A DNA stretch of 64,000 nucleotides from NCBI GenBank assembly GCA_043811375.1, contig JBDRNJ010000072.1, positions 137,984-201,983 on the forward strand, in the 5' to 3' direction. Shown piece by piece: positions 5,744 through 62,896 of this stretch. A program made the position numbers and the translations under genes. Within the stretch, counting starts at the first letter, position 1. Each line of letters opens with the position of its first letter. Under the pieces are notes generated by a model, which saw only the letters and a program-made list of their open reading frames with translations, was not told the origin of the DNA and did no database searches. The DNA is from a bacterium. Its GTDB lineage: Bacteria; Zixibacteria; MSB-5A5; GN15; FEB-12.

Positions 5744-5775
5744 AGCCCGCCTGATCTCAGGCGGGCTTTTTTTCA
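5744..5775 (+). terminator. rho-independent terminator of hpf
   Basis: A perfect 8-bp GC-rich stem agcccgcc/ggcgggct with an 8-nt loop is followed by a T-run (5767-5774). Confidence 0.8.
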
Positions 5776-5957: not shown

Positions 5958-5992
5958 CTGTGGTAAACCGCGAACTCTGATCGCTACCACAC
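5958..5992 (+). repeat. hairpin repeat family R2, degenerate copy
   Basis: ctgtggtaaaccgcgaactctgatcgctaccacac aligns with 46743-46775 (tgtgaaccgcgatcgcagatcgcggccacacag), with several substitutions or indels that weaken the stem. Confidence 0.55.
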
Positions 5993-6026
5993 TGGCCGAA
6001 AAAGGGGGTAATCTGGAGTTCCTAAC

Positions 6027-9000
6027 ATGAAGGTAAAAAAGCACGAACAACAACGGTTGTTATTCGGGTCACGCGATTCCGTTCTGGAGGCGGCTGATAA
6101 GCTGGTAAACGCTGCTAATGATCTTATGCGTACTTCCAATACTGAAGAGGACTTGCGCATCGGGTTTGAAAAAGCGCTGGAGCCTTTATGCAGAAGTATA
6201 GGGATCAAACTTGAGCCAAGATATGAAAAGTATGCCAAGTTCACAAGGGTGTTCTCTGACGTGATGCATGGACGGGTTCTTATTGAATACGAAAACCCAG
6301 GTGCCTTTAAATCTCAAAAATGGATAGAACACGCATATGACCAGCTATTTGACCAAATCCAGGGCGAAGCAAAGGCCGAGAAAGAAACCCTATTCCTTTT
6401 TGACCCAAAATTTGTAGGAGTCGCTTTTGACGGCAAACAAATATTTTTTGTTCGCTACAGGGGAGAGAAAAATAAAGCTAAAATCACCCTTAATAAAAGA
6501 GATTTTATTCTAGAAGGCCCCCATCCTTTTGACCAGCAAAGCGCACGCACACTGCTTACCTATTTGCGCGCACTCTCCCGCAAACTCCTGACCGCCGTGA
6601 ACCTCGCGGAGGTCTTCGGGCCCAAAAGCAAGGTTGCTCCTATGGCTGTCTCCGCTTTTGCGGACGCGCTGGAGCACTGGGGCGGCGACAGGGTGAAGGT
6701 CTTCTTTAACGAGTGGAAGCGGCTTTTTGGCATTGTCTACGGGGAAAGGTTCGGTGCCCACTCGGCCGAGGACGCCAATGCGCTTTCAAAGCAATATAAC
6801 GTGGGCAGGAAGACCAACCTTCAGGAGCTTCTTTTTTCGGTCCACACCTATTTCGCTCTTCTTATGAAGTTTATTGCAGCCGAACTCATCACCTTCAAGG
6901 AGAGCTCCTTTTCGGCGTCGTTTTCCCACGATCTCACGCATTGCTCAAAGAACGGACTTAAGGCCCGGCTTGCCGATATCGAGGACGGGGGGGTATACGC
7001 CAAACGGGGCATAACGAATTTTCTGGAGGGCGATTTTTTCAGGTGGTATCTTGATGCCTTCTCTCCTCGACTTGAGGATGCCGTGAGGGAGATCGCCAGG
7101 GGACTCTCGGAGTTCGAGCCTGCCACAACAATGATCGATCCTGAGTCAACCCGAGACCTATTGAAAAAGCTGTATCAGTATCTGGTGCCACAACAGGTGC
7201 GGCATAACCTGGGCGAATACTATACCCCTGACTGGCTAGCGGAGCTTGTCCTGGACGAGACTGGGTACAAGGGCAATCTCAAAAAGCGGCTCCTCGACCC
7301 GGCCTGTGGCTCCGGCACGTTCCTCGTGCTGGCCATAAAGCGTGCCATAGAGCACGGTAAAGAATATCGTTATTCGCCCCTTGAGACTGTCAAGAGCATT
7401 GTCGAAAACATATGGGGTTTCGATCTTAACCCATTGGCTGTTATTGCGGCGCGTACCAACTACCTTTTTGCACTGGGCGACATGATCTCGGAACTGCCCT
7501 CCTTCGAGGTGCCTGTGTATCTGGCCGATTCGGTCTTGTGGCCTGAAAGAAGACAGATCCACATTACAGCATCGGAATCAGTTGAAATACCCACTTCCGT
7601 TCAGACCTTTCTGGTACCGAAGGTCTGGGTCGAGAACAAGGGCTTCCATATGACCAGGGCCGCACCCCTCGTTGAGAAAATGTCAAGAGAGCGCTACGAA
7701 GTCTCCGAGGCCATGGAGAGGTTCAAAAAGGAAGGTCTTGCCTTTCCGCCACACGAGGAGGCTGTTCAATGCTTCTACGCCGACATACTGAAGCTCGAAA
7801 AGGAAGGGAAAAACGGTATCTGGGCGCGCTTTCTTAAGAACTCTTTCGCCCCTCAGACGGCTGGAAAGTTTGATTACGTAGCTGGAAATCCTCCCTGGAT
7901 AAGGTGGGATTACCTTTCCCAAGAGTACCGCGCTGCGACGCTTTCCCTCTGGCAGGAATACGGCCTTTTTTCACTCAAGGGATTTCAGAGTAGACTTGGC
8001 GGTGGGAAGAAAGATTTTTCCATGCTTTTTACCTATGCCTCCGCCGACCACTACCTCAATGACAAGGGCAGACTCGGCTTTCTTATAACCCAAGAGGTCT
8101 TCAAGTCCAAGGGCGCGGGTGAGGGTTTCCGGAAGTTCTGTCTTGGGCCAAACGGCAAGCCGCTCAAGGTCTTGAAGGCCCACGACCTCGTAACCGTACA
8201 GCCCTTCGAGGGAGCCGCCAACAAAACTGCCGCTATAGTTTTAGAGAAGGGGCGATCTACTAAGTATCCTGTCCCATATACAGTGTGGACACGCAAAAAG
8301 AAGGTCGGGAGGATACCAACGGACTTCGTGCTAAAAGAGGCGTTACAGTTACTCCAAAAAGAGAAGCTGTCGGCACAACCGATGGGCTCTAAGTTGGGTG
8401 CTTGGCAAACTTATCCCTTAGAATCAGAGGATTTAACGAAGATACAAGGTAAGAATTATTATACTGCCCATTCTGGTGCTTATATTTCTCCTTACGGAGT
8501 ATTCTGGTTGAAAATTAAACAAGTGTTATCTAACGGTGACTTGCTTGTTGAAAACCTTACCGAAAAAGGGAAGACAAAAATTCCTAAATTAGAAGAAACA
8601 ATTGAGCAAGATTTAGTTTATCCCGGCCTGCGTGGCTCGGATATTCAAAGGTGGCAAGCAACTCCTAAAATACATGTTTTGCTTACCCAAGACCCATCTA
8701 AACGGGAACCATATCCAGAAGCAGTTATGAAAAGAGAGTGGCCAAGAACTTATGGATATCTAACAAAATTCAAAGGAATTTTACAGTCAAGAGCATCAAA
8801 GATATTACAAGATTTGGCACGAAAAACTTCTTTTTACGCAGTTTTCGGAGTTGCAAATTATACAATGAGTAATTATAAGGTCGTATGGAAACGAATGACT
8901 AATGATTTAATCGCAACAGTTATTTCACAAACGAAAACATCGTTCGGGTATAAAACTATCATCCCTTTTGAAACAACAGCCCTGATTGCTACCGATAACG

Positions 9001-9278
9001 AATCCGAAGCCCATTATCTCTGCGCTATTATCAATTCAAAACCAGTTCGCGATTTTATTAAGTCATTTTCTTCCGCTGGCCGGGGCTTTGGCACACCTTC
9101 AGTGATGAACTATGTAGGGATTCCTATGTTCGACCGGGGGAACAAGATACACAGCGAGCTCGCGCGCCTTTCCAAGATGCTACACAAACTCAAAAAAGAG
9201 GATAAAACAGACGAAATCCCCGGCTTTGAGAAGGAAGTGAACAAACAAGCGCGAAAGATGTTTGGAATCAAAGAATAA
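6027..9278 (+). CDS. single-polypeptide type IIG/IIL-like restriction-modification enzyme homologue: N-terminal MmeI-like nuclease-like domain, gamma-class N6-adenine methyltransferase and TaqI-C-like specificity domain
   Basis: 1083-aa ORF with GGAG 8 nt upstream of the ATG. SAM motif I is LLDPACGSGTFLVLA and motif IV is DYVAGNPPWIRWDY. The C-terminal LVYPGLRGSDIQRW resembles the TaqI_C specificity-domain signature. The N-terminal FSDVMHGRVLIEYENPGAF...AYDQLFDQI resembles, from my memory, the MmeI-family nuclease motif (D-x9-E-x-K ... AYDQALDY). Here it reads D-x8-E-x-E. Confidence 0.8.
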   Translation: MKVKKHEQQRLLFGSRDSVLEAADKLVNAANDLMRTSNTEEDLRIGFEKALEPLCRSIGIKLEPRYEKYAKFTRVFSDVMHGRVLIEYENPGAFKSQKWIEHAYDQLFDQIQGEAKAEKETLFLFDPKFVGVAFDGKQIFFVRYRGEKNKAKITLNKRDFILEGPHPFDQQSARTLLTYLRALSRKLLTAVNLAEVFGPKSKVAPMAVSAFADALEHWGGDRVKVFFNEWKRLFGIVYGERFGAHSAEDANALSKQYNVGRKTNLQELLFSVHTYFALLMKFIAAELITFKESSFSASFSHDLTHCSKNGLKARLADIEDGGVYAKRGITNFLEGDFFRWYLDAFSPRLEDAVREIARGLSEFEPATTMIDPESTRDLLKKLYQYLVPQQVRHNLGEYYTPDWLAELVLDETGYKGNLKKRLLDPACGSGTFLVLAIKRAIEHGKEYRYSPLETVKSIVENIWGFDLNPLAVIAARTNYLFALGDMISELPSFEVPVYLADSVLWPERRQIHITASESVEIPTSVQTFLVPKVWVENKGFHMTRAAPLVEKMSRERYEVSEAMERFKKEGLAFPPHEEAVQCFYADILKLEKEGKNGIWARFLKNSFAPQTAGKFDYVAGNPPWIRWDYLSQEYRAATLSLWQEYGLFSLKGFQSRLGGGKKDFSMLFTYASADHYLNDKGRLGFLITQEVFKSKGAGEGFRKFCLGPNGKPLKVLKAHDLVTVQPFEGAANKTAAIVLEKGRSTKYPVPYTVWTRKKKVGRIPTDFVLKEALQLLQKEKLSAQPMGSKLGAWQTYPLESEDLTKIQGKNYYTAHSGAYISPYGVFWLKIKQVLSNGDLLVENLTEKGKTKIPKLEETIEQDLVYPGLRGSDIQRWQATPKIHVLLTQDPSKREPYPEAVMKREWPRTYGYLTKFKGILQSRASKILQDLARKTSFYAVFGVANYTMSNYKVVWKRMTNDLIATVISQTKTSFGYKTIIPFETTALIATDNESEAHYLCAIINSKPVRDFIKSFSSAGRGFGTPSVMNYVGIPMFDRGNKIHSELARLSKMLHKLKKEDKTDEIPGFEKEVNKQARKMFGIKE

Positions 9279-9280
9279 GC

Positions 9281-9313
9281 CTGTGTGGCCGCGATCTCTG
9301 ATCGCGGTTCACC
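9281..9313 (-). repeat. hairpin repeat family R2, copy in inverted orientation
   Basis: ctgtgtggccgcgatctctgatcgcggttcacc starts 3 nt after the methyltransferase stop codon. Its reverse complement nearly equals 46744-46775, differing only in the loop. The stem is ccgcgatc/gatcgcgg. Confidence 0.8.
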
Positions 9314-9384
9314 AACCACGCACTTTCCCTACAACTTTTTACCAGATAACTGCCCTTCCCCTTATGTTATAGAAAGGCACAATT

Positions 9385-9906
9385 ATGTCAGGCACTAGCC
9401 CGAAGCAGCTCGAGGCCAACCGGCGCAACGCACCGCGCTCCACCGGCCCCCGGACTCCCGCAGGCAAATCGCGCGTGAAATTCAACGCGCTCAAGCATGG
9501 CCTGTTGGCGAAGTCCGTCATCCTGCCCATCCGCAGCCGCTCCGAAAAACGGAGCCACTTCGATGCCCTCCTGGCGCAGCTGATCGACGAACTCAAACCG
9601 GTTGGCATCCTGGAAGATATGCTGGTGGAGAAAATTGCTGTGTCGTACTGGCGCCTGCGCCGCGCCCTCCGCGCCGAAGCCGGCGAAATCTGTGACAACA
9701 TCCGCGATTTCCGCCGGTATCCCTACGCCACCGACCCCGCTACTCTCGCCCTTCCTTCATCCCGCGATACCCTCAAGATCGTCCGCTACCAAAATGCCAT
9801 CGAGCGTCAGCTTCATCGGGCTATCACCCAACTACAACGCCTGCAAGATCACCGTTGCCTTTCCCACGCTAACACCTCGGAGACACCGCCTATCGACGAA
9901 AAATAA
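9385..9906 (+). CDS. hypothetical protein with a basic N-terminus (NALKHGLLA motif) and a helical C-terminus
   Basis: 173-aa ORF with an ATG start and clearly higher GC than the neighbouring methyltransferase gene. No catalytic motif was recognised. The Arg/Lys-rich N-terminal 40 aa are followed by predicted helices (..WRLRRALRAEAGE.., ..QLHRAITQLQRLQDHR..). Confidence 0.55.
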   Translation: MSGTSPKQLEANRRNAPRSTGPRTPAGKSRVKFNALKHGLLAKSVILPIRSRSEKRSHFDALLAQLIDELKPVGILEDMLVEKIAVSYWRLRRALRAEAGEICDNIRDFRRYPYATDPATLALPSSRDTLKIVRYQNAIERQLHRAITQLQRLQDHRCLSHANTSETPPIDEK

Positions 9907-10138
9907 CGAAATTACGAAACAAACCCATTTTCATCCGTCCGTTCAGTCTGGATACAGTAGGTCAGTATCCTTGCGGTGACGACGAATGCTTGAATTGGCA
10001 GATTTCAATAAGATGGCATATACAAGACTATCAACGTAAAACTCTGTATTTGATCGGACCCCACTGGGCTCTCGACGTGCGTGGCATCCTGACCTTGATC
10101 TGGTCCGGGATGTGGTTCAACATACAGTTGCAAACCGC

Positions 10139-54873: not shown

Positions 54874-56169
54874 TTAACACGGTGCTGGTGACGGGCCACC
54901 CTGGAACAGGTACGCTACAAGATATGTCAGGTCACCGACATCAATACTGCTGCTGCCATCCACGTCGGCTTCTTCCGGGCACGGCGGTGATGGGCCGCCC
55001 TGGAAGAGATAAGCGACCTGGTTTGTCAAATCGCCAACGTCAATGGCGCCGCTACGGTCAACATCGCCCCGTATGTCACAACAATACAGAATGGGAAAAC
55101 AGTGGGGACCATCCCAAGAAGGTGCGAATTTCTTAAAGTATGACGAACCGTGTACGACTGTGGCCCATATCCAGTCACCACCGGGCGGATACCAGGATGA
55201 ATCAAGACAAATCTCACCCCCGGAATACATCCTGTCTATCGGCCCAATGGTTATAGTATGAGTTACAGAATCGAATCCTACCGGCAATCCGTAGTTTATC
55301 CAGCTCATATAACCCAACAAGGCCGTGTCCGAGTCGGAACCGGTTACACCGATGGATCTGTAGATGTGTTCGACATCAAAGAAACTATCAATGGCAATAA
55401 CGGTAGCAACAGTCATACCGGACCAGGTAGCGCCAGTGGGGGAATATACCCGAAACCCATTTGTCAGCCCGCGGATTCGATCGGGAAGGTTGTTGAACAT
55501 GCGAATGTGAAAAACTATTTCCTTATCAGTGAGAACAGTATCGGGGCCGAGAAGTCCATCAACATGATCCAGGCTGATCACTCCCCCGGTGAGCGGTGGG
55601 CAATCAGGAGGACCGTCGCAGTTAAGTAAAGGACTTCCCACGAAACGGCTCCACGTATAAACAGGATCATAGACATTGACCCCTTCGCAGCCGTCCGTGT
55701 TTGCGGCATACATACATGCAGGTGACAGTCCGCCACGCCACAGGAAATTACTGATGAAAAACAAGTCGCCTGGACCAACAATGTCATTGCCATCCGCATC
55801 ACCGCACTTCACTTGCTCGCATGAATCTCCAATGCCATCACCATCGGTGTCGGTCTGGTCAGAATTGGCAAACCCCGGGCAGTTGTCCTCCGGGCAGGTA
55901 TTCGATGGAAAACCCGGATCACCAAAGCCGTCACCATCCTGATCGGTGCATTCGTCACAGGGGTTACCAATACCGTCACCATCGGCATCATACTGTTCCG
56001 GGTTCCAATAGTTCGGGCAGTTGTCAAGCGAGTCTTCGATACCATCACCATCGCTATCACTTCGTTGACTGGTATACTGGTCTGCTGCTGCCTGCACAAC
56101 CGTATCTTTGGTGGTGACAGAGAGGAGGAAAATCATTGCTGTGATTATAAGGAAAACAATCGTTAGCAT
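54874..56169 (-). CDS. secreted protein with TSP3-like Ca-binding repeats, an internal and a C-terminal dockerin-like module
   Basis: 431 aa with the N-terminal TM/signal MLTIVFLIITAMIFLLSV. The TSP3-like part reads DSDGDGIEDSLDNCPNYWNPEQYDADGDGIGNPCDECTDQDGDGFGD..DNCPGFANSDQTDTDGDGIGDSC. The internal module is CGDADGNDIVGPGDLFFISNFLWRGGLSPAC. The C-terminal module is CCDIRGDVDRSGAIDVGDLTNQVAYLFQGGPSPPCPEEADVDGSSSIDVGDLTYLVAYLFQGGPSPAPC. Confidence 0.75.
   Translation of the reverse strand: MLTIVFLIITAMIFLLSVTTKDTVVQAAADQYTSQRSDSDGDGIEDSLDNCPNYWNPEQYDADGDGIGNPCDECTDQDGDGFGDPGFPSNTCPEDNCPGFANSDQTDTDGDGIGDSCEQVKCGDADGNDIVGPGDLFFISNFLWRGGLSPACMYAANTDGCEGVNVYDPVYTWSRFVGSPLLNCDGPPDCPPLTGGVISLDHVDGLLGPDTVLTDKEIVFHIRMFNNLPDRIRGLTNGFRVYSPTGATWSGMTVATVIAIDSFFDVEHIYRSIGVTGSDSDTALLGYMSWINYGLPVGFDSVTHTITIGPIDRMYSGGEICLDSSWYPPGGDWIWATVVHGSSYFKKFAPSWDGPHCFPILYCCDIRGDVDRSGAIDVGDLTNQVAYLFQGGPSPPCPEEADVDGSSSIDVGDLTYLVAYLFQGGPSPAPC
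54877..55083 (-). other. dockerin-like C-terminal module
   Basis: See the CDS evidence. The module starts with the CC codons at 55078-55083 (minus strand) and ends at the C-terminus. Confidence 0.7.
55618..55806 (-). other. internal dockerin-like module (more divergent)
   Basis: Residues ~122-184 read CGDADGNDIVGPGDLFFISNFLWRGGLSPACMYAANTDGCEGVNVYDPVYTWSRFVGSPLLNC. The first half fits the loop-helix pattern well and the second half is degenerate. Confidence 0.45.
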
Positions 56170-56458
56170 AATAATATCACCCCTAATTTGATTGGTTGCT
56201 AATAGATCCCAAAACTGTTTGCTCCAGACCTATTCTACCATAGCAATATAAGTTCTGCTTACGCTCTTGTCCAGTTAAATATGGAGCCTTAAATGAAAAC
56301 GAAAAGAGTCCCCCTTTTTTGTGGTAGCAGCTCAATTAACTCAATACTGAAAGTTTTTAGTTTGTTTCGCGACTCAGCCTCGGTATTATTTTCTTTCTTG
56401 CAAAATGTAAGTTTAAATTAACTGACGAAAGATCACTAACATAAGAGGAGAGACCACA

Positions 56459-57811
56459 ATGAAGAATCGTACTTTCTACTTCTGGATATTACCAATGATA
56501 CTTGTTGTAATGTTTATGGTGCAATCCCGTGGTGACAATCCTGCGGATAGCGCCTACTTCAGTTGGGCAGATTCTGGCTATGTTACACCAGTGAGACACA
56601 ACCAATACAGCTGTCATTCCTGTCAGACAATGTCTGGTTGCGCTATAATTGAAAGCCAGATCCTATTGCAACTTGGCAAGGCAGATTCAAATGTGAACCT
56701 ATCCGAACAGTATATCGTATCATGCTGGAATACTGATACATTCTGTTTATCAATCATTAACTTCGATTCGGCCATAATACCCGGCATACCTACGGAGGAT
56801 TGCCTCCCGTGGCAAATAGACAGTGATTGTATTAATATGTACAATTGTAACTTCGATTTCTGTGATGATACGTGTGATTATCCTTATGCCTGGGCCAGTT
56901 TCATCGATTCTACCGGAACCTCGACAGTAAATGTAGGTTCTTTGAAGGAGGCTATTGTTGTGCACGGACCAATCAGGGTTATGGGCTACTTTGACAGTTG
57001 TTCCTTGGCTAGTTTTGATCCGGACACGGGCGTATTTAACTCCCAACCGTTTGGGAAAGACACAGTCGGCTACGGACACTTCTATGTGATTTATGGGTGG
57101 AATGATACCTGCACCGCTTTTACTCCACCGAAAGGTCCGTACCCCTGCTGGCTTGCCAAGAACTCCTGGGGCACAAGTTGGGGCGAGCCGGGGCCGGATA
57201 GTGTAGGCGAAGCCCCCGGATGCTTCAAGCTTCACCAAGACACTAGTATGTTCAGAATATCTGCCGACTGGGTGGATTGGACACCCCTGGGCAAACCGAC
57301 CCTGTGTGGTCCCTTTGGCTACACGGCTTACGATCCATCCGACAGCTCAGTCAGATTTGTCTGGCAAACGCCGGGTGACGCCTCTGAGGACGCGGACAGC
57401 AACGATTACCGTCTGAATATTCTGGATGCGTCAGACAGTATTTTCTACTCCGCTATCGTGGCGGACACATACATTGTTCTCGATAATTTGGTCTTTGATT
57501 CTACATATACCTGGTTTGTACGTGCTTTTGTGGAGGGTCGCACCAGCTCACGGGTTAGTGATTGGTCAGCCGGTGAGGTTACAGTGCTGTCCCTACCCTG
57601 CTGCTCTGTCCCCGGTGATTGTAATCATGATGCTGGGGTAAATGTAGGGGATATTGCGTATCTGACCCAGTATGTTCATTACAATGGCTTGTACCTCGCT
57701 TGCTGGGAGGAGGCTGATGTTAACGATGATGACGAAGTGGATGCCGACGATATATCATATTTGGTGGCCTATCTATTCCAGAGCGGCCCGGCTCCGGCGG
57801 CCTGCCCGTGA
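56459..57811 (+). CDS. secreted papain-like (C1 family) cysteine peptidase with Fn3-like domain and C-terminal dockerin-like module
   Basis: GAGGAG lies upstream of the ATG, and the N-terminus is a signal/TM (MKNRTFYFWILPMILVVMFMV). WADSGYVTPVRHNQYSCHSCQTMSG aligns with papain DWR..GAVTPVKNQG.CGSCWAFS, retaining Gln and the catalytic Cys. The His region is GYGHFYVIYGW and the Asn region is WLAKNSWGTSWGEPG. The tail reads CCSVPGDCNHDAGVNVGDIAYLTQYV...EEADVNDDDEVDADDISYLVAYLFQSGPAPAACP. Confidence 0.8.
   Translation: MKNRTFYFWILPMILVVMFMVQSRGDNPADSAYFSWADSGYVTPVRHNQYSCHSCQTMSGCAIIESQILLQLGKADSNVNLSEQYIVSCWNTDTFCLSIINFDSAIIPGIPTEDCLPWQIDSDCINMYNCNFDFCDDTCDYPYAWASFIDSTGTSTVNVGSLKEAIVVHGPIRVMGYFDSCSLASFDPDTGVFNSQPFGKDTVGYGHFYVIYGWNDTCTAFTPPKGPYPCWLAKNSWGTSWGEPGPDSVGEAPGCFKLHQDTSMFRISADWVDWTPLGKPTLCGPFGYTAYDPSDSSVRFVWQTPGDASEDADSNDYRLNILDASDSIFYSAIVADTYIVLDNLVFDSTYTWFVRAFVEGRTSSRVSDWSAGEVTVLSLPCCSVPGDCNHDAGVNVGDIAYLTQYVHYNGLYLACWEEADVNDDDEVDADDISYLVAYLFQSGPAPAACP
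57599..57808 (+). other. dockerin-like C-terminal module (most divergent copy)
   Basis: The CC prefix, two acidic loop-helix repeats and a C-terminal ..PAACP are present. Confidence 0.6.
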
Positions 57812-57877
57812 GCTTGTTGTACTGCCCGGTTAGACCATCACAAAATCCGTCGTTTTTTTCCTTGACCAGCAATAACA

Positions 57878-57893
57878 TGGCCCCTACCTTGCG
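57878..57893 (+). promoter_or_regulatory. sigma-54 (-24/-12) promoter candidate upstream of the membrane-module cluster
   Basis: TGGCCCctaccTTGCG versus the consensus TGGCAC-N5-TTGCW. The invariant GG and GC are at the correct 10-nt spacing, and the site lies about 160 nt upstream of the first gene of the 58039-64000 cluster. rpoN and one enhancer-binding protein are encoded in this window. Confidence 0.5.
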
Positions 57894-58038
57894 ATCTGTT
57901 GATCCGGAATAATGATAACGAATCAGTTGAAAACGAACCGGACCGACAGCACTCCGGGTGAGTGACTATAAGGTTAGAGGGAAATAGTCTCGGGACGCAT
58001 CGGACACACACCGTGTCTTTTTTGGTTCCTGGGTACGG

Positions 58039-59322
58039 TTGAGGACTAAGAACTTGGCAAACATCTCCTGCTCGTCTGCTCGTTTCCGCTTCTCCCGCCA
58101 CATTATCTTATTGTCTCTGATTCTTTTGGTGGCCGTGCCCGCAATTGGCGCGCAGGAAGAACCGGCCGCAGTCGACAGCCTTGATCTGGCCCTTGCACCT
58201 GACAGCATCCCTCAGGAATACTATCCCCTCCCACCAACCGACGTTACCGTTCGCGATGTCCCCAATGACGCCGGGGAAGCTATCATTATTGAATGGCAAC
58301 TCTCAGTAGATGACTTTGAGGACGGTAAGGTGCTCGAGTACATTCTATTACGTAGCAAGACCGACGCCCTGCCGTTTGAGGAGATCGGGCGAGTTGACCA
58401 GGGAAATACCAGTTTCACAGATCGCACTGCTGAGAACGGCGTTGATTATTATTACCGCGTGGCAGCCATCAATTACGAAAAGCAGGATACACTGACCCTC
58501 TGGGAGGCAATCAGTGAATCGGTCACTGCCGGACCGGTAGTCGCCAGCGCCCAGTGGTTCAACACCGAACGCTTGAATATCTTTATCGGCATAATTATTC
58601 TGTGCGGGTCAATAATCTACTTTATAACGGCCGCCAAGGGGGGCAAGGACTTCTACGTCCGCAAGATCGCCGGTATTGAAGAAGTCAATAATGCCGTGGG
58701 GCGAGCAACCGAAATGGGGCGCTCCATCTACTATGTTCCCGGCATTATGGACATGGATGACGTGCAAACTCTTGCCAGCCTGACCATACTGGGCAGTGTG
58801 GCAGCAATCGCCGCCGAGAACGACACCCGGATCGACGTACCCGTTTCCAAATCAATGGTCATGGTGACTGCCAAAGAGGTTGTCAGGGAAGCCTACAGCA
58901 AAGTGGGGCGACCGGATTCCTTCATGGATGATCAGGTTCGCTACCTGACCGACGACCAATTCGGCTATGCAGCCGCCATTGACGGTTTGTTTGTGCGCGA
59001 GAAACCGGCCACGATCTTTTTGATCGGGGCCTTTTTTGCCGAGTCGCTGATTATGGCCGAAACCGGTAACAGCATCGGCGCTATTCAGATTTCGGGGACG
59101 GCCATGCCGTCGCAGTTGCCTTTTTTCATTGCCGCCTGTGATTTCACCCTGATCGGGGAAGAGTTGTTCGCCGCCTCGGCTTACCTGTCACGCGAACCCA
59201 AACTGCTTGGTTCGCTCAAAGGTCAGGACGTGGGCAAAGCTGTTTTCCTGCTGGCCATACTGGTCGGCTGCATACTGGAGAGTTTCGGCGTGCCGGTGCA
59301 CGAACTGTTTGTCGGGCGTTAG
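58039..59322 (+). CDS. membrane-module subunit A: signal peptide, extracytoplasmic Fn3-like domain, then a conserved multi-TM domain of unknown family
   Basis: 427-aa ORF with a TTG start at 58039. The alternative TTG at 58054 has GAGGA 7-8 nt upstream. Signal ..HIILLSLILLVAVPAIGA|QEE. The Fn3-like part reads PPTDVTVRDVPNDAGEAIIIEWQ...YYYRVAAINYE. The C-terminal ~240 aa are strongly conserved with A' (GRATEMGR, DMDDVQTLA.LTILG, REKPAT.FL.GAFFAESLI.AETGNSIGAIQI.GTA.P.QLPFFIAACDFTLIGEELFAASAYLS.EP..LGSLKGQDVGKA). Confidence 0.7.
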   Translation: MRTKNLANISCSSARFRFSRHIILLSLILLVAVPAIGAQEEPAAVDSLDLALAPDSIPQEYYPLPPTDVTVRDVPNDAGEAIIIEWQLSVDDFEDGKVLEYILLRSKTDALPFEEIGRVDQGNTSFTDRTAENGVDYYYRVAAINYEKQDTLTLWEAISESVTAGPVVASAQWFNTERLNIFIGIIILCGSIIYFITAAKGGKDFYVRKIAGIEEVNNAVGRATEMGRSIYYVPGIMDMDDVQTLASLTILGSVAAIAAENDTRIDVPVSKSMVMVTAKEVVREAYSKVGRPDSFMDDQVRYLTDDQFGYAAAIDGLFVREKPATIFLIGAFFAESLIMAETGNSIGAIQISGTAMPSQLPFFIAACDFTLIGEELFAASAYLSREPKLLGSLKGQDVGKAVFLLAILVGCILESFGVPVHELFVGR

Positions 59323-60998: not shown

Positions 60999-61634
60999 AT
61001 GGGCTTCTGGGATACATTTGGAGTCTGGCTGGCAGCCGCGCTGACTATCGGTATTATCTCTTTTCTGTACCGGGACAACGCCTTTTACAAGGTGTGCGAA
61101 AGCATCTTTGTCGGGATATCGGCCGGTTACTGGTTTATTACTTACTACTGGGATAACCTGTATAAGAAGTTCTATGTCCAGGTGACCGACCCTAACAACC
61201 CGGAGTGGTACGTGCCGTGGGTCGGCTTTGTTCTGGGAACATTGATGCTGACACGGCTGATCGGCAAGATCGGCTGGCTGTCACGCTGGCCGCTGGCGTT
61301 TATCGTGGGTGGTGTTGCCGGCCTCTACATGATGACCTATTTCGTATCCAACGCCATGAACCAGGTAGCAGCTACAATTGTGCCGGTTCTTACCGGCAGC
61401 TGGACTGATATAATCGCCAGTTCGATGATAGCCATCGGTACCTTCTGCGGGCTGGTTTATTTCTTCTTCTCCAAAGCACATACCGGGGTTTTTGGCGGCG
61501 CGGCACGAGTGGGTATCTGGTTTTTGATGGTCACTTTCGGAGCGTCGTTCGGCTACACCGTCATGAGCCGTATGTCGCTGATGCTGGGGAGACTGGACTT
61601 CCTGTTCGGAACCTGGCTGGGAATGATCCCATAG
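60999..61634 (+). CDS. membrane-module subunit D: polytopic membrane protein, unknown family
   Basis: 211 aa. The ATG directly abuts the C stop codon (TAAATG). There are about 6 hydrophobic helices rich in aromatic residues and Gly (..GISAGYWFITYYWDNLY.., ..FIVGGVAGLYMMTYF..). Confidence 0.65.
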   Translation: MGFWDTFGVWLAAALTIGIISFLYRDNAFYKVCESIFVGISAGYWFITYYWDNLYKKFYVQVTDPNNPEWYVPWVGFVLGTLMLTRLIGKIGWLSRWPLAFIVGGVAGLYMMTYFVSNAMNQVAATIVPVLTGSWTDIIASSMIAIGTFCGLVYFFFSKAHTGVFGGAARVGIWFLMVTFGASFGYTVMSRMSLMLGRLDFLFGTWLGMIP

Positions 61635-62896
61635 TGTTGCCGCTCCTGCCGACAGTAGCGCGTTGTAAAAGTACTCTTTTCATATCGGCTGTTATCACCC
61701 TGATCCTGTTGGCGGCAGTTGCATCCGCACAGACAGAGCCCACTGACGGCGACAGCACAAAAATCGAGGCTGATTCTGTAACTGTTGCAGTGGCTCCTGT
61801 CACATCATTGATCGCTTCCGACCACAAGTACGATGCGGGCGAACAAATCGACCTGTCCTGGGTGCCGTCTATCGATGACCGACTGGTCGACGGCAAGGTA
61901 ACCGGTTACTCCGTCTTCCGGATAATTGAGGGTGGTGAACCGGAAATTATCGCAGAACTCGCACCCGGAAGCAACTCATATAATGACAGGGACCTTGAGT
62001 CCGGCACCGAGTACAGCTACTATGTGGTGGCGCTCTCTGAAAGTTCTCTGGCCATGTCGGTGTCGACGGCACAGATAGCACCGAAGCCGGAGTGGCTGAA
62101 TCTCTCACGCGGATACCTGTTTCTGATCGCTTTGTTCATCTCGGCCGCGGTGATATACTTTGTAGAAAGCGCCAAGAGAGGCAAGAAGTTGTTTGTACGC
62201 CGAATAGCCGGTCTGGAGGCGATTGACGATGCCGTCGGGCGCGCCACCGAGATGGGCCGACCGGTACTTTTTATCCCCGGCATTAGCGACATGGATGATG
62301 TCCAGACCCTGGCGGCACTGACCATTCTGGGGCGGGTGTCCCGCACTATAGCCGATTACGATACCAAAATCTTCATGCCGGTGGCACGGTCACTGGTAAT
62401 GACAGCCGCTCGCGAAACTATCAAGACATCTTACCAGGCAGCCGGGCATCCCGATGCCTACAGTGACGATATGGTCAACTATGTCACCGACGAGCAATTC
62501 GGTTATGTAGCGGCCGTGGATGGTCTCATGGTACGTGAGAAACCGGCGACGGTGTTCCTGCTGGGGGCGTTTTTTGCCGAATCGTTGATCCTGGCCGAGA
62601 CCGGCAACTCGATTGGCGCCATCCAGATTGCCGGTACTGCTCGACCGGCCCAGTTGCCGTTCTTTATTGCCGCCTGCGACTTTACCCTGATCGGCGAAGA
62701 ACTGTTTGCGGCTTCGGCCTACCTGTCCGGCGAACCGCGTATGCTGGGTTCCCTCAAAGGTCAGGATGTGGGTAAAGCAATTGCCGTGGCGGCTATCTTT
62801 TTGGGCGTCCTGACAATCACTATCGCCGAAGCCTGGGATTCAGAATCCATGCAGGCTGTTTACGACTGGCTGAGCGAGATATTCTCGAGTAACTGA
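61634..62896 (+). CDS. membrane-module subunit A' (paralogue of A)
   Basis: 420 aa. The GTG start overlaps the D stop by 1 nt. It has a signal, an Fn3-like domain (..DLSWVPSIDDRLVDGKVTGYSVFRI...YSYYVVALSE) and the same conserved C-terminal domain as A, roughly two-thirds identical by eye. Confidence 0.7.
   Translation: MLPLLPTVARCKSTLFISAVITLILLAAVASAQTEPTDGDSTKIEADSVTVAVAPVTSLIASDHKYDAGEQIDLSWVPSIDDRLVDGKVTGYSVFRIIEGGEPEIIAELAPGSNSYNDRDLESGTEYSYYVVALSESSLAMSVSTAQIAPKPEWLNLSRGYLFLIALFISAAVIYFVESAKRGKKLFVRRIAGLEAIDDAVGRATEMGRPVLFIPGISDMDDVQTLAALTILGRVSRTIADYDTKIFMPVARSLVMTAARETIKTSYQAAGHPDAYSDDMVNYVTDEQFGYVAAVDGLMVREKPATVFLLGAFFAESLILAETGNSIGAIQIAGTARPAQLPFFIAACDFTLIGEELFAASAYLSGEPRMLGSLKGQDVGKAIAVAAIFLGVLTITIAEAWDSESMQAVYDWLSEIFSSN

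Follow-up and report, generated by a model that had tools for sequence, protein, structure and literature searches.

The closest described relatives of the gene considered here are the type IIG restriction-modification (RM) enzymes of the TspDTI subfamily, of which TspDTI, Tth111II, TthHB27I and TsoI have been purified and are active endonuclease-methyltransferases. These four enzymes carry an 'atypical D-EXE' cleavage motif, the S-adenosylmethionine (SAM) motif DPACGSG and the catalytic motif NPPW (PMC3384240). The putative catalytic residues of the TspDTI-type cleavage motif are D66, E75 and E77, i.e., D-x8-E-x-E; other TspDTI homologues have D-EXK, and BamHI has been cited as the precedent for D-EXE, while the TspGWI subfamily is distinguished by the motifs DPA[VM]GTG and NPPY (PMC3384240). 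A weak HSDR_N match published for TspDTI favors a nuclease of the PD-(D/E)XK type. Tth111II recognizes CAARCA, cuts at N11/N9 and methylates the last adenine of its site on one strand only; its nicking of the top strand outpaces its methylation about 20-fold, double-strand cleavage is efficient only with two or more sites, and SAM or sinefungin stimulates the enzyme. The gene examined here lies at 6027..9278 on the plus strand of a 64,000-nucleotide stretch (the window) of contig JBDRNJ010000072.1 from a bacterium of the Zixibacteria. Whereas the TspDTI-type enzymes come from Thermus, this protein is from an uncultured bacterium represented by a metagenome-assembled genome (MAG).

The window protein was readily placed beside these enzymes. 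The PADLOC model REase_MTase_IIG (PDLC03630) matched it with an E-value of 4e-280 over model positions 17-1084 of 1100, and BLASTP against TsoI, the sequence of which was taken from supplement 3 of PMC3384240, returned 37% identity over 1120 columns (residues 15-1083, E=0). In this alignment SDVMHGRVLIEYENPG stands opposite ADAIFNRLVIEYERPG, so placed that D78-x8-E87-x-E89 meets the TsoI motif in every column, and the methyltransferase strings DPACGSGTF and GNPPW are likewise in register. TsoI and the window protein also matched the same three PADLOC models (PDLC03630, PDLC03580 and PDLC03625). The protein belongs to the TspDTI subfamily because it aligns with TsoI at full length, has its motifs in register and matches the same models. 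Like TspDTI, TsoI, Tth111II and TthHB27I, it is encoded by one gene without a companion methyltransferase, is of similar size (1083 residues, compared with 1116 for TsoI), follows the R-helical-M-S domain order, and has D-x8-E-x-E, DPACGSG and NPPW in identical form. The probability that it is a stand-alone type IIG (IIC/IIS) RM enzyme of the 'Thermus family', TspDTI subfamily, is put at roughly 80%. It adds an uncharacterized enzyme to a known family that is very widespread, and it carries the motif variant published for that family.

The open reading frame (ORF) starts with ATG, preceded by GGAG 8 nt to the 5' side, and is full length without a frameshift. Its N-terminal domain (6027..6551, residues 1-175) was assigned as a putative PD-(D/E)XK-type nuclease from the motif alignment with TsoI and other relatives and from an AlphaFold model. 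The putative catalytic residues D78 (6258-6260), E87 (6285-6287) and E89 (6291-6293), aligned to D66, E75 and E77 of TsoI, are contained in SDVMHGRVLIEYENPGAF and form the D-x8-E-x-E motif. The helix that follows the E-x-E strand carries H102 (6330-6332), Q106 and Q110, where relatives have H-x3-Q-x3-Y. An all-helical linker domain follows (6552..7121, residues ~176-365; the full-length model is helical over 170-361), comparable to the 'helical linker' of TspDTI. The gamma-class N6-adenine methyltransferase domain (7122..8396, residues ~366-790) was recognized by Foldseek and by the Pfam models N6_Mtase and Eco57I, both of which exceeded their cut-offs; it contains motif I, DPACGSGTFL (7296-7325, residues 424-433), and motif IV, NPPW (7887-7898, residues 621-624, within GNPPW at 620-624). 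DPACGSG and NPPW are invariant in 34 homologues. The C-terminal target-recognition domain (TRD; 8397..9275, residues ~791-1083) is TaqI-like, as indicated by a weak, sub-cut-off Pfam TaqI_C match (E=0.04), by alignment with the TsoI C-terminus and by fold matches to M.BseCI and CamA. The original prediction, made from the letters of the window, had described this 1083-residue ORF and the same order of nuclease, gamma-class methyltransferase and TaqI-like TRD, and had read the N-terminal block as the PD-(D/E)XK motif region; the layout was correct, the block had been called right, and every motif string that it quoted, AYDQLFDQI included, is present in the sequence.

The same prediction had noted that Glu occupies the position of the catalytic Lys of MmeI and that the motif spacing is one residue shorter, and both points were borne out. 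It had, however, treated D-x8-E-x-E as an anomaly that called for a choice between an orphan methyltransferase, non-canonical nuclease chemistry and a missing partner. The distribution of the motif was followed among relatives, with the N-terminal 210 residues searched against 1.84 billion cluster representatives, from which 275 relatives were recovered at E<=0.001. When the best 150 representatives (50% identity) were aligned with the window protein and TsoI, 87 had D-x8-E-x-E and 48 had D-x8-E-x-K; the remainder were fragments or misaligned, and the spacing was x8 in every case. The balance was more uneven nearer to the window protein: together with its 119 close full-length homologues (>=61% identity), D-x8-E-x-E was found in 116 sequences and D-x8-E-x-K in four. 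The Glu/Lys alternation at the third catalytic position is thus a natural polymorphism within one family, and the spacing is a family trait. As D-x8-E-x-E is the normal published motif of subfamily members that cut DNA, its presence in the window protein is no anomaly (PMC3384240; 87 representatives), and the three-way choice is unneeded. An orphan methyltransferase was retained as a minority alternative, on other grounds that are given below.

The third catalytic position does not vary alone. At position 102, His occurs in 57 of 80 D-E-E sequences but never in the 46 D-E-K sequences, which have Lys, Arg or Glu there (Fisher p=3e-17, uncorrected for phylogeny). H102 precedes the Gln of the QxxxY-like motif by one helical turn, and, given the spacing of H102, Q106 and Y110 (i, i+4, i+8), the helix after the E-x-E strand would present all three on the same face. 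It is conceivable, though unlikely, that the Glu-for-Lys form constitutes a distinct catalytic subclass in which H102 partly replaces the Lys, and that the window lineage has been remodeled (GR to VF before the Asp, QxxxY to QxxxQ) with altered activity, e.g., nicking-only or strongly methylation-biased.

The fold of the N-terminal domain was also considered. The AlphaFold model of the 200 N-terminal residues (predicted local distance difference test, pLDDT, 81) has the order helix-helix-strand-strand-strand-helix-strand-strand, with E87 and E89 on the third strand (83-88), an order that, as modeled, would fit a PD-(D/E)XK core. The canonical D-x8-E-x-K of 48 of the 150 relatives falls in the same columns and supports membership of that superfamily. 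The full-length model (pLDDT 77.7) shows nuclease, helical linker, Rossmann-fold methyltransferase and TRD in that order, and matched CamA, M.BseCI, BrxX/PglX, DrdV and MmeI in Foldseek through the methyltransferase and TRD (E<=1e-10).

Several observations tell against the reading as a complete TspDTI-type enzyme. When the 200-residue N-terminal model was compared with the PDB by Foldseek, the best match had an E-value of only 0.11, and the top matches (CidB/CinB nucleases and a splicing endonuclease, E 0.16-0.6) were unrelated or merely suggestive. Neither an N-terminal profile run against PDB sequences nor the Pfam models scanned over 26 N-terminal domains (E<=10) gave anything but noise. 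The pLDDT falls below 50 around residues 70-80, just before D78. In the published work the catalytic role of D/E/E in the TspDTI subfamily is marked 'B', i.e., as a bioinformatics assignment and not one based on mutagenesis (PMC3384240). Finally, among the positions highly conserved in a consensus built from 118 close homologues, the window protein has lost four of 40 in the nuclease domain (G75V, R76F, Y110Q and G133A), compared with six of 361 elsewhere (Fisher p=0.012); more than 93% of the close homologues differ from the window allele at these positions. Of 116 close D-E-E homologues, 113 have Y110, the Tyr of the QxxxY (H-x3-Q-x3-Y) stripe. These substitutions, which set the window lineage apart from the characterized TspDTI-type enzymes, could weaken cleavage.

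The loss of these residues, their enrichment in the nuclease domain and the low model confidence before D78 are the grounds for the strongest alternative, in which the protein would be a derivative with an attenuated or dead nuclease, working chiefly as an N6-adenine methyltransferase of TspDTI-type descent, either orphan or nicking-only. The four substitutions are the one substantial argument for an attenuated nuclease. Against this, D78, E87, E89, H102 and Q106 are intact, the reading frame is undamaged, and R76 is not universal in the wider family (73 of 87 D-E-E and 34 of 48 D-E-K representatives have it). All four substitutions are common to the window protein and its closest relative (P0002, 82% identical). 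The ratio of nonsynonymous to synonymous substitution rates between the two alleles is 0.18 in the nuclease domain, similar to the 0.13-0.15 of the other domains, and the nuclease domains are 87% identical. These values imply that the nuclease domain has been kept under purifying selection since the substitutions were acquired, and an attenuated nuclease is accordingly regarded as a minority possibility, well behind a complete stand-alone RM enzyme.

A second alternative is that the protein is a methyltransferase component of a multi-gene defense system, such as BREX (bacteriophage exclusion; PglX-like), DISARM (defense island system associated with restriction-modification) or a type I/III system, with its partners elsewhere in the genome. 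The fold of its methyltransferase and TRD resembles that of BrxX/PglX (Foldseek E ~1e-13, more than 1000 columns), NCBIfam and PADLOC models of PglX gave weak matches, and a two-gene module lies downstream of the RM gene in nine of 80 loci of distant relatives. The PglX matches, however, were confined to the motif I region and scored 42.7 bits against a cut-off of 400 for the best NCBIfam model and 12-23 bits against 500-900 for others, i.e., 10- to 40-fold under the cut-offs. The best matches are instead to models of single-chain type IIG enzymes, which they cover from end to end, and an N-terminal nuclease domain is present. PglX/BrxX, unlike the window protein as read here, is part of a multi-gene system, and neither PglZ, BrxC, BrxL, a helicase-nuclease nor a second methyltransferase was found in the window. 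Neighboring genes are not conserved among related loci, and the window has no homologue of the nine-locus module. A role of this kind is therefore considered very improbable.

The remaining alternative is that the protein belongs to the MmeI family proper (type IIL) and has a mutated catalytic lysine. The original prediction had called it 'MmeI-like', and the MmeI string quoted there was exact: residues 69-88 of PDB 5HR4 contain D70-x9-E80-x-K82. The label was apt for the architecture, as MmeI and DrdV share with the window protein a single nuclease-helical-methyltransferase-TRD chain in which the nuclease motif has the same place, ahead of a Q-x3-Y helix. By eye, the D...E-x-[KE] and Q-x3-Y blocks of the window protein can be aligned with those of MmeI, and the methyltransferase and TRD match by fold (E 1e-10 to 1e-11; 2e-10 for MmeI itself, with 751 residues in the matched 5HR4 chain compared with 919 deposited). 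By sequence the label does not hold. MmeI_Mtase, the sole Pfam MmeI model that matched, scored 25.9 bits, short of its 27-bit cut-off, over about 60 residues (419-478), phmmer of the window protein against PDB sequences did not find MmeI, and similarity to MmeI is undetectable outside motif I. The x9 spacing of MmeI also differs from the x8 that is invariant in the window protein's own family. Since Glu is ancestral and common in that family, it is not a mutated MmeI lysine, and membership of the MmeI family is the least credible of the readings, with next to no weight.

Two further enzymes are instructive comparisons. BamHI, too, is a PD-(D/E)XK enzyme in which Glu replaces the canonical Lys, giving an E-x-E active site; it is a type IIP homodimer without a methyltransferase fusion, and is likened here by motif. 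RM.BpuSI, a type IIG enzyme with a crystal structure, has an N-terminal PD-...-ExK nuclease, a helical domain, a gamma-class methyltransferase and a TRD (PMC3185434). It differs in having PD-x15-ExK, and was not recovered by sequence or fold searches with the window protein.

The gene is solitary. Upstream are lptB, rpoN and hpf, and downstream are a 173-residue gene (9385-9906, plus strand), a 323-residue ORF without a family match and an EamA transporter; the unannotated neighbors had no PADLOC or NCBIfam match. No other gene of the 64-kb window was assigned to RM or defense: a further methyltransferase, PglZ, BrxC and restriction subunits are all missing. The earlier description of the gene as solitary, with no helicase, PglZ, BrxC or separate nuclease gene adjacent, holds. 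The contexts of relatives were taken from the loci of homologues, with GTDB species genomes scanned and the flanking ORFs of the best 80 loci clustered. Loci of the TspDTI-type family number no fewer than 597 among GTDB species representatives and are spread over many phyla of bacteria, with some in archaea. The commonest neighbor family occurs in only nine of the 80 clustered loci, and on three long contigs the RM gene of relatives lies amid unrelated housekeeping genes. The solitary state is the family norm, as expected for a one-chain RM enzyme. In one relative's locus (L003, 7209-11749) the RM gene is inserted between an rsmD-like (Cons_hypoth95) and a coaD-like (CTP_transf_like) gene; there, and in the window, where it follows rpoN-hpf, single-gene RM units seem to have inserted within or next to conserved operons of housekeeping genes.

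The nine loci with a common neighbor (L047, L051, L052, L066, L068, L070, L074, L078 and L085) belong to distant relatives (~36-37% identity) and have a same-strand module by the RM gene. A protein of ~562 residues is encoded in all nine and one of ~377 residues in six (e.g., L047:4864-5994 and 6004-7689). Neither had a Pfam match and neither occurs in the window; the module may be a separate defense module or an accessory specific to that subfamily.

The 173-residue downstream gene was examined as a general partner of the RM gene, as it is also adjacent in the locus of the closest relative (L005). It was rejected: copies 91-93% identical in protein sequence sit by unrelated genes with no RM gene nearby, and the gene is absent from all 80 GTDB loci. 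Searches with it gave no Pfam, NCBIfam or PADLOC match but recovered 776 homologues, among which identities of 85-95% are frequent; elsewhere in the MAG, a second contig encodes a paralogue with 68% identity. The conserved block of DNA extends over ~586 bp (~9345-9930) and is 89-91% identical in unrelated contexts, such as after a UvrD-like helicase (L087-L089) or after a 279-residue gene of unknown function (L086). The unit adjoins an RM gene only in the window and in L005, and has the appearance of a small unit that is multi-copy or mobile, or of a marker for a hotspot of variable genes.

The RM gene has a GC content of 0.476, compared with 0.543 in the rest of the window. A strong hairpin resembling an intrinsic terminator (5744..5767, plus strand; 10-bp stem with eight G-C pairs, then a T run) follows hpf and would set the RM gene apart from the operon of rpoN and hpf. 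Homology to L005 extends from ~5951 to ~9937, and further upstream in L005 is an IS110 transposase. The low GC content, the preceding terminator and the IS110 element beside the relative's copy fit a horizontally acquired single-gene unit. Integration linked to a tRNA gene was rejected, there being no tRNA genes in the window. The ORF is bracketed by a 17-nt direct repeat with two matches in the window, compared with 0.02 expected. The upstream copy, CCGCGAACTCTGATCGC (5968..5984, plus strand), lies 43 nt before the ATG and matches L005 at 12 of 17 positions; the downstream copy, CCGCGATCTCTGATCGC (9289..9305, plus strand), lies 11 nt beyond the stop codon, forms a perfect 8-bp hairpin and has a conserved counterpart in L005 (4945-4961). 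The repeat could be a terminator, an operator or a recombination site.

Comparison with the L005 gene also revealed an exchanged specificity cassette (8214..9026, plus strand; codons ~730-1000; GC 0.40). Nucleotide identity is 55-68% within these codons and 87-95% elsewhere, and the synonymous divergence (dS) between the alleles is 1.73 in the TRD compared with 0.34-0.56 in the other domains. The gene is a mosaic in which the TRD cassette has been swapped by recombination. As the cassette has been swapped, the window and L005 alleles probably differ in recognition site. The TspDTI/TsoI/Tth111II 'triplets' follow the same pattern, with the N-terminal two-thirds in common and different TRDs.

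A mechanism can be proposed by analogy with Tth111II, TsoI and TspDTI, which would be the guides to the recognition site, cut distance and activity of the window allele. A single chain combines the putative PD-(D/E)XK-type nuclease, a helical coupler, the gamma-class N6-adenine methyltransferase and the TaqI-like TRD; with both activities and the specificity in one chain, no partner gene is needed. The enzyme would bind an asymmetric site of ~5-6 bp and, at the host's own sites, methylate one adenine on one strand in a SAM-dependent manner. Unmodified DNA would be cut at a fixed distance downstream (11/9 nt in characterized members), presumably with the top strand nicked first, at least two sites required for efficient double-strand cleavage and SAM acting as an allosteric stimulator. 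Exchange of the TRD cassette, as between the window allele and its closest relative, would generate new specificities.

The other large ORFs of the window encode housekeeping and cell-surface proteins, including gyrA, purA, lon, RNase R, mfd and tolB/tonB/exbB. Two paralogous DUF6754 proteins (58039-59322 and 61634-62896; E ~1e-119 each) are encoded on the same strand 2.3 kb apart, with three small ORFs without a clear family match between them. A dip in GC content at 56001-58000 (0.466 compared with ~0.54) spans the gene of a dockerin-bearing cysteine protease of the papain family (56459-57811), and further surface proteins with dockerin, beta-helix, HYR and CHU_C domains are encoded at 27-42 kb.

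The gene is best annotated as a type IIG restriction enzyme/N6-adenine methyltransferase of the TspDTI subfamily, and not merely as an 'N-6 DNA methylase'. Beyond annotation the importance of this single gene is small, and its practical value modest. For the family, the alternation of Glu and Lys and the covariation with His provide a natural comparison for the study of PD-(D/E)XK sites without the lysine. Because it is very large and exchanges its TRD in cassette-like fashion, the family is also a reservoir of new type IIS-like specificities.

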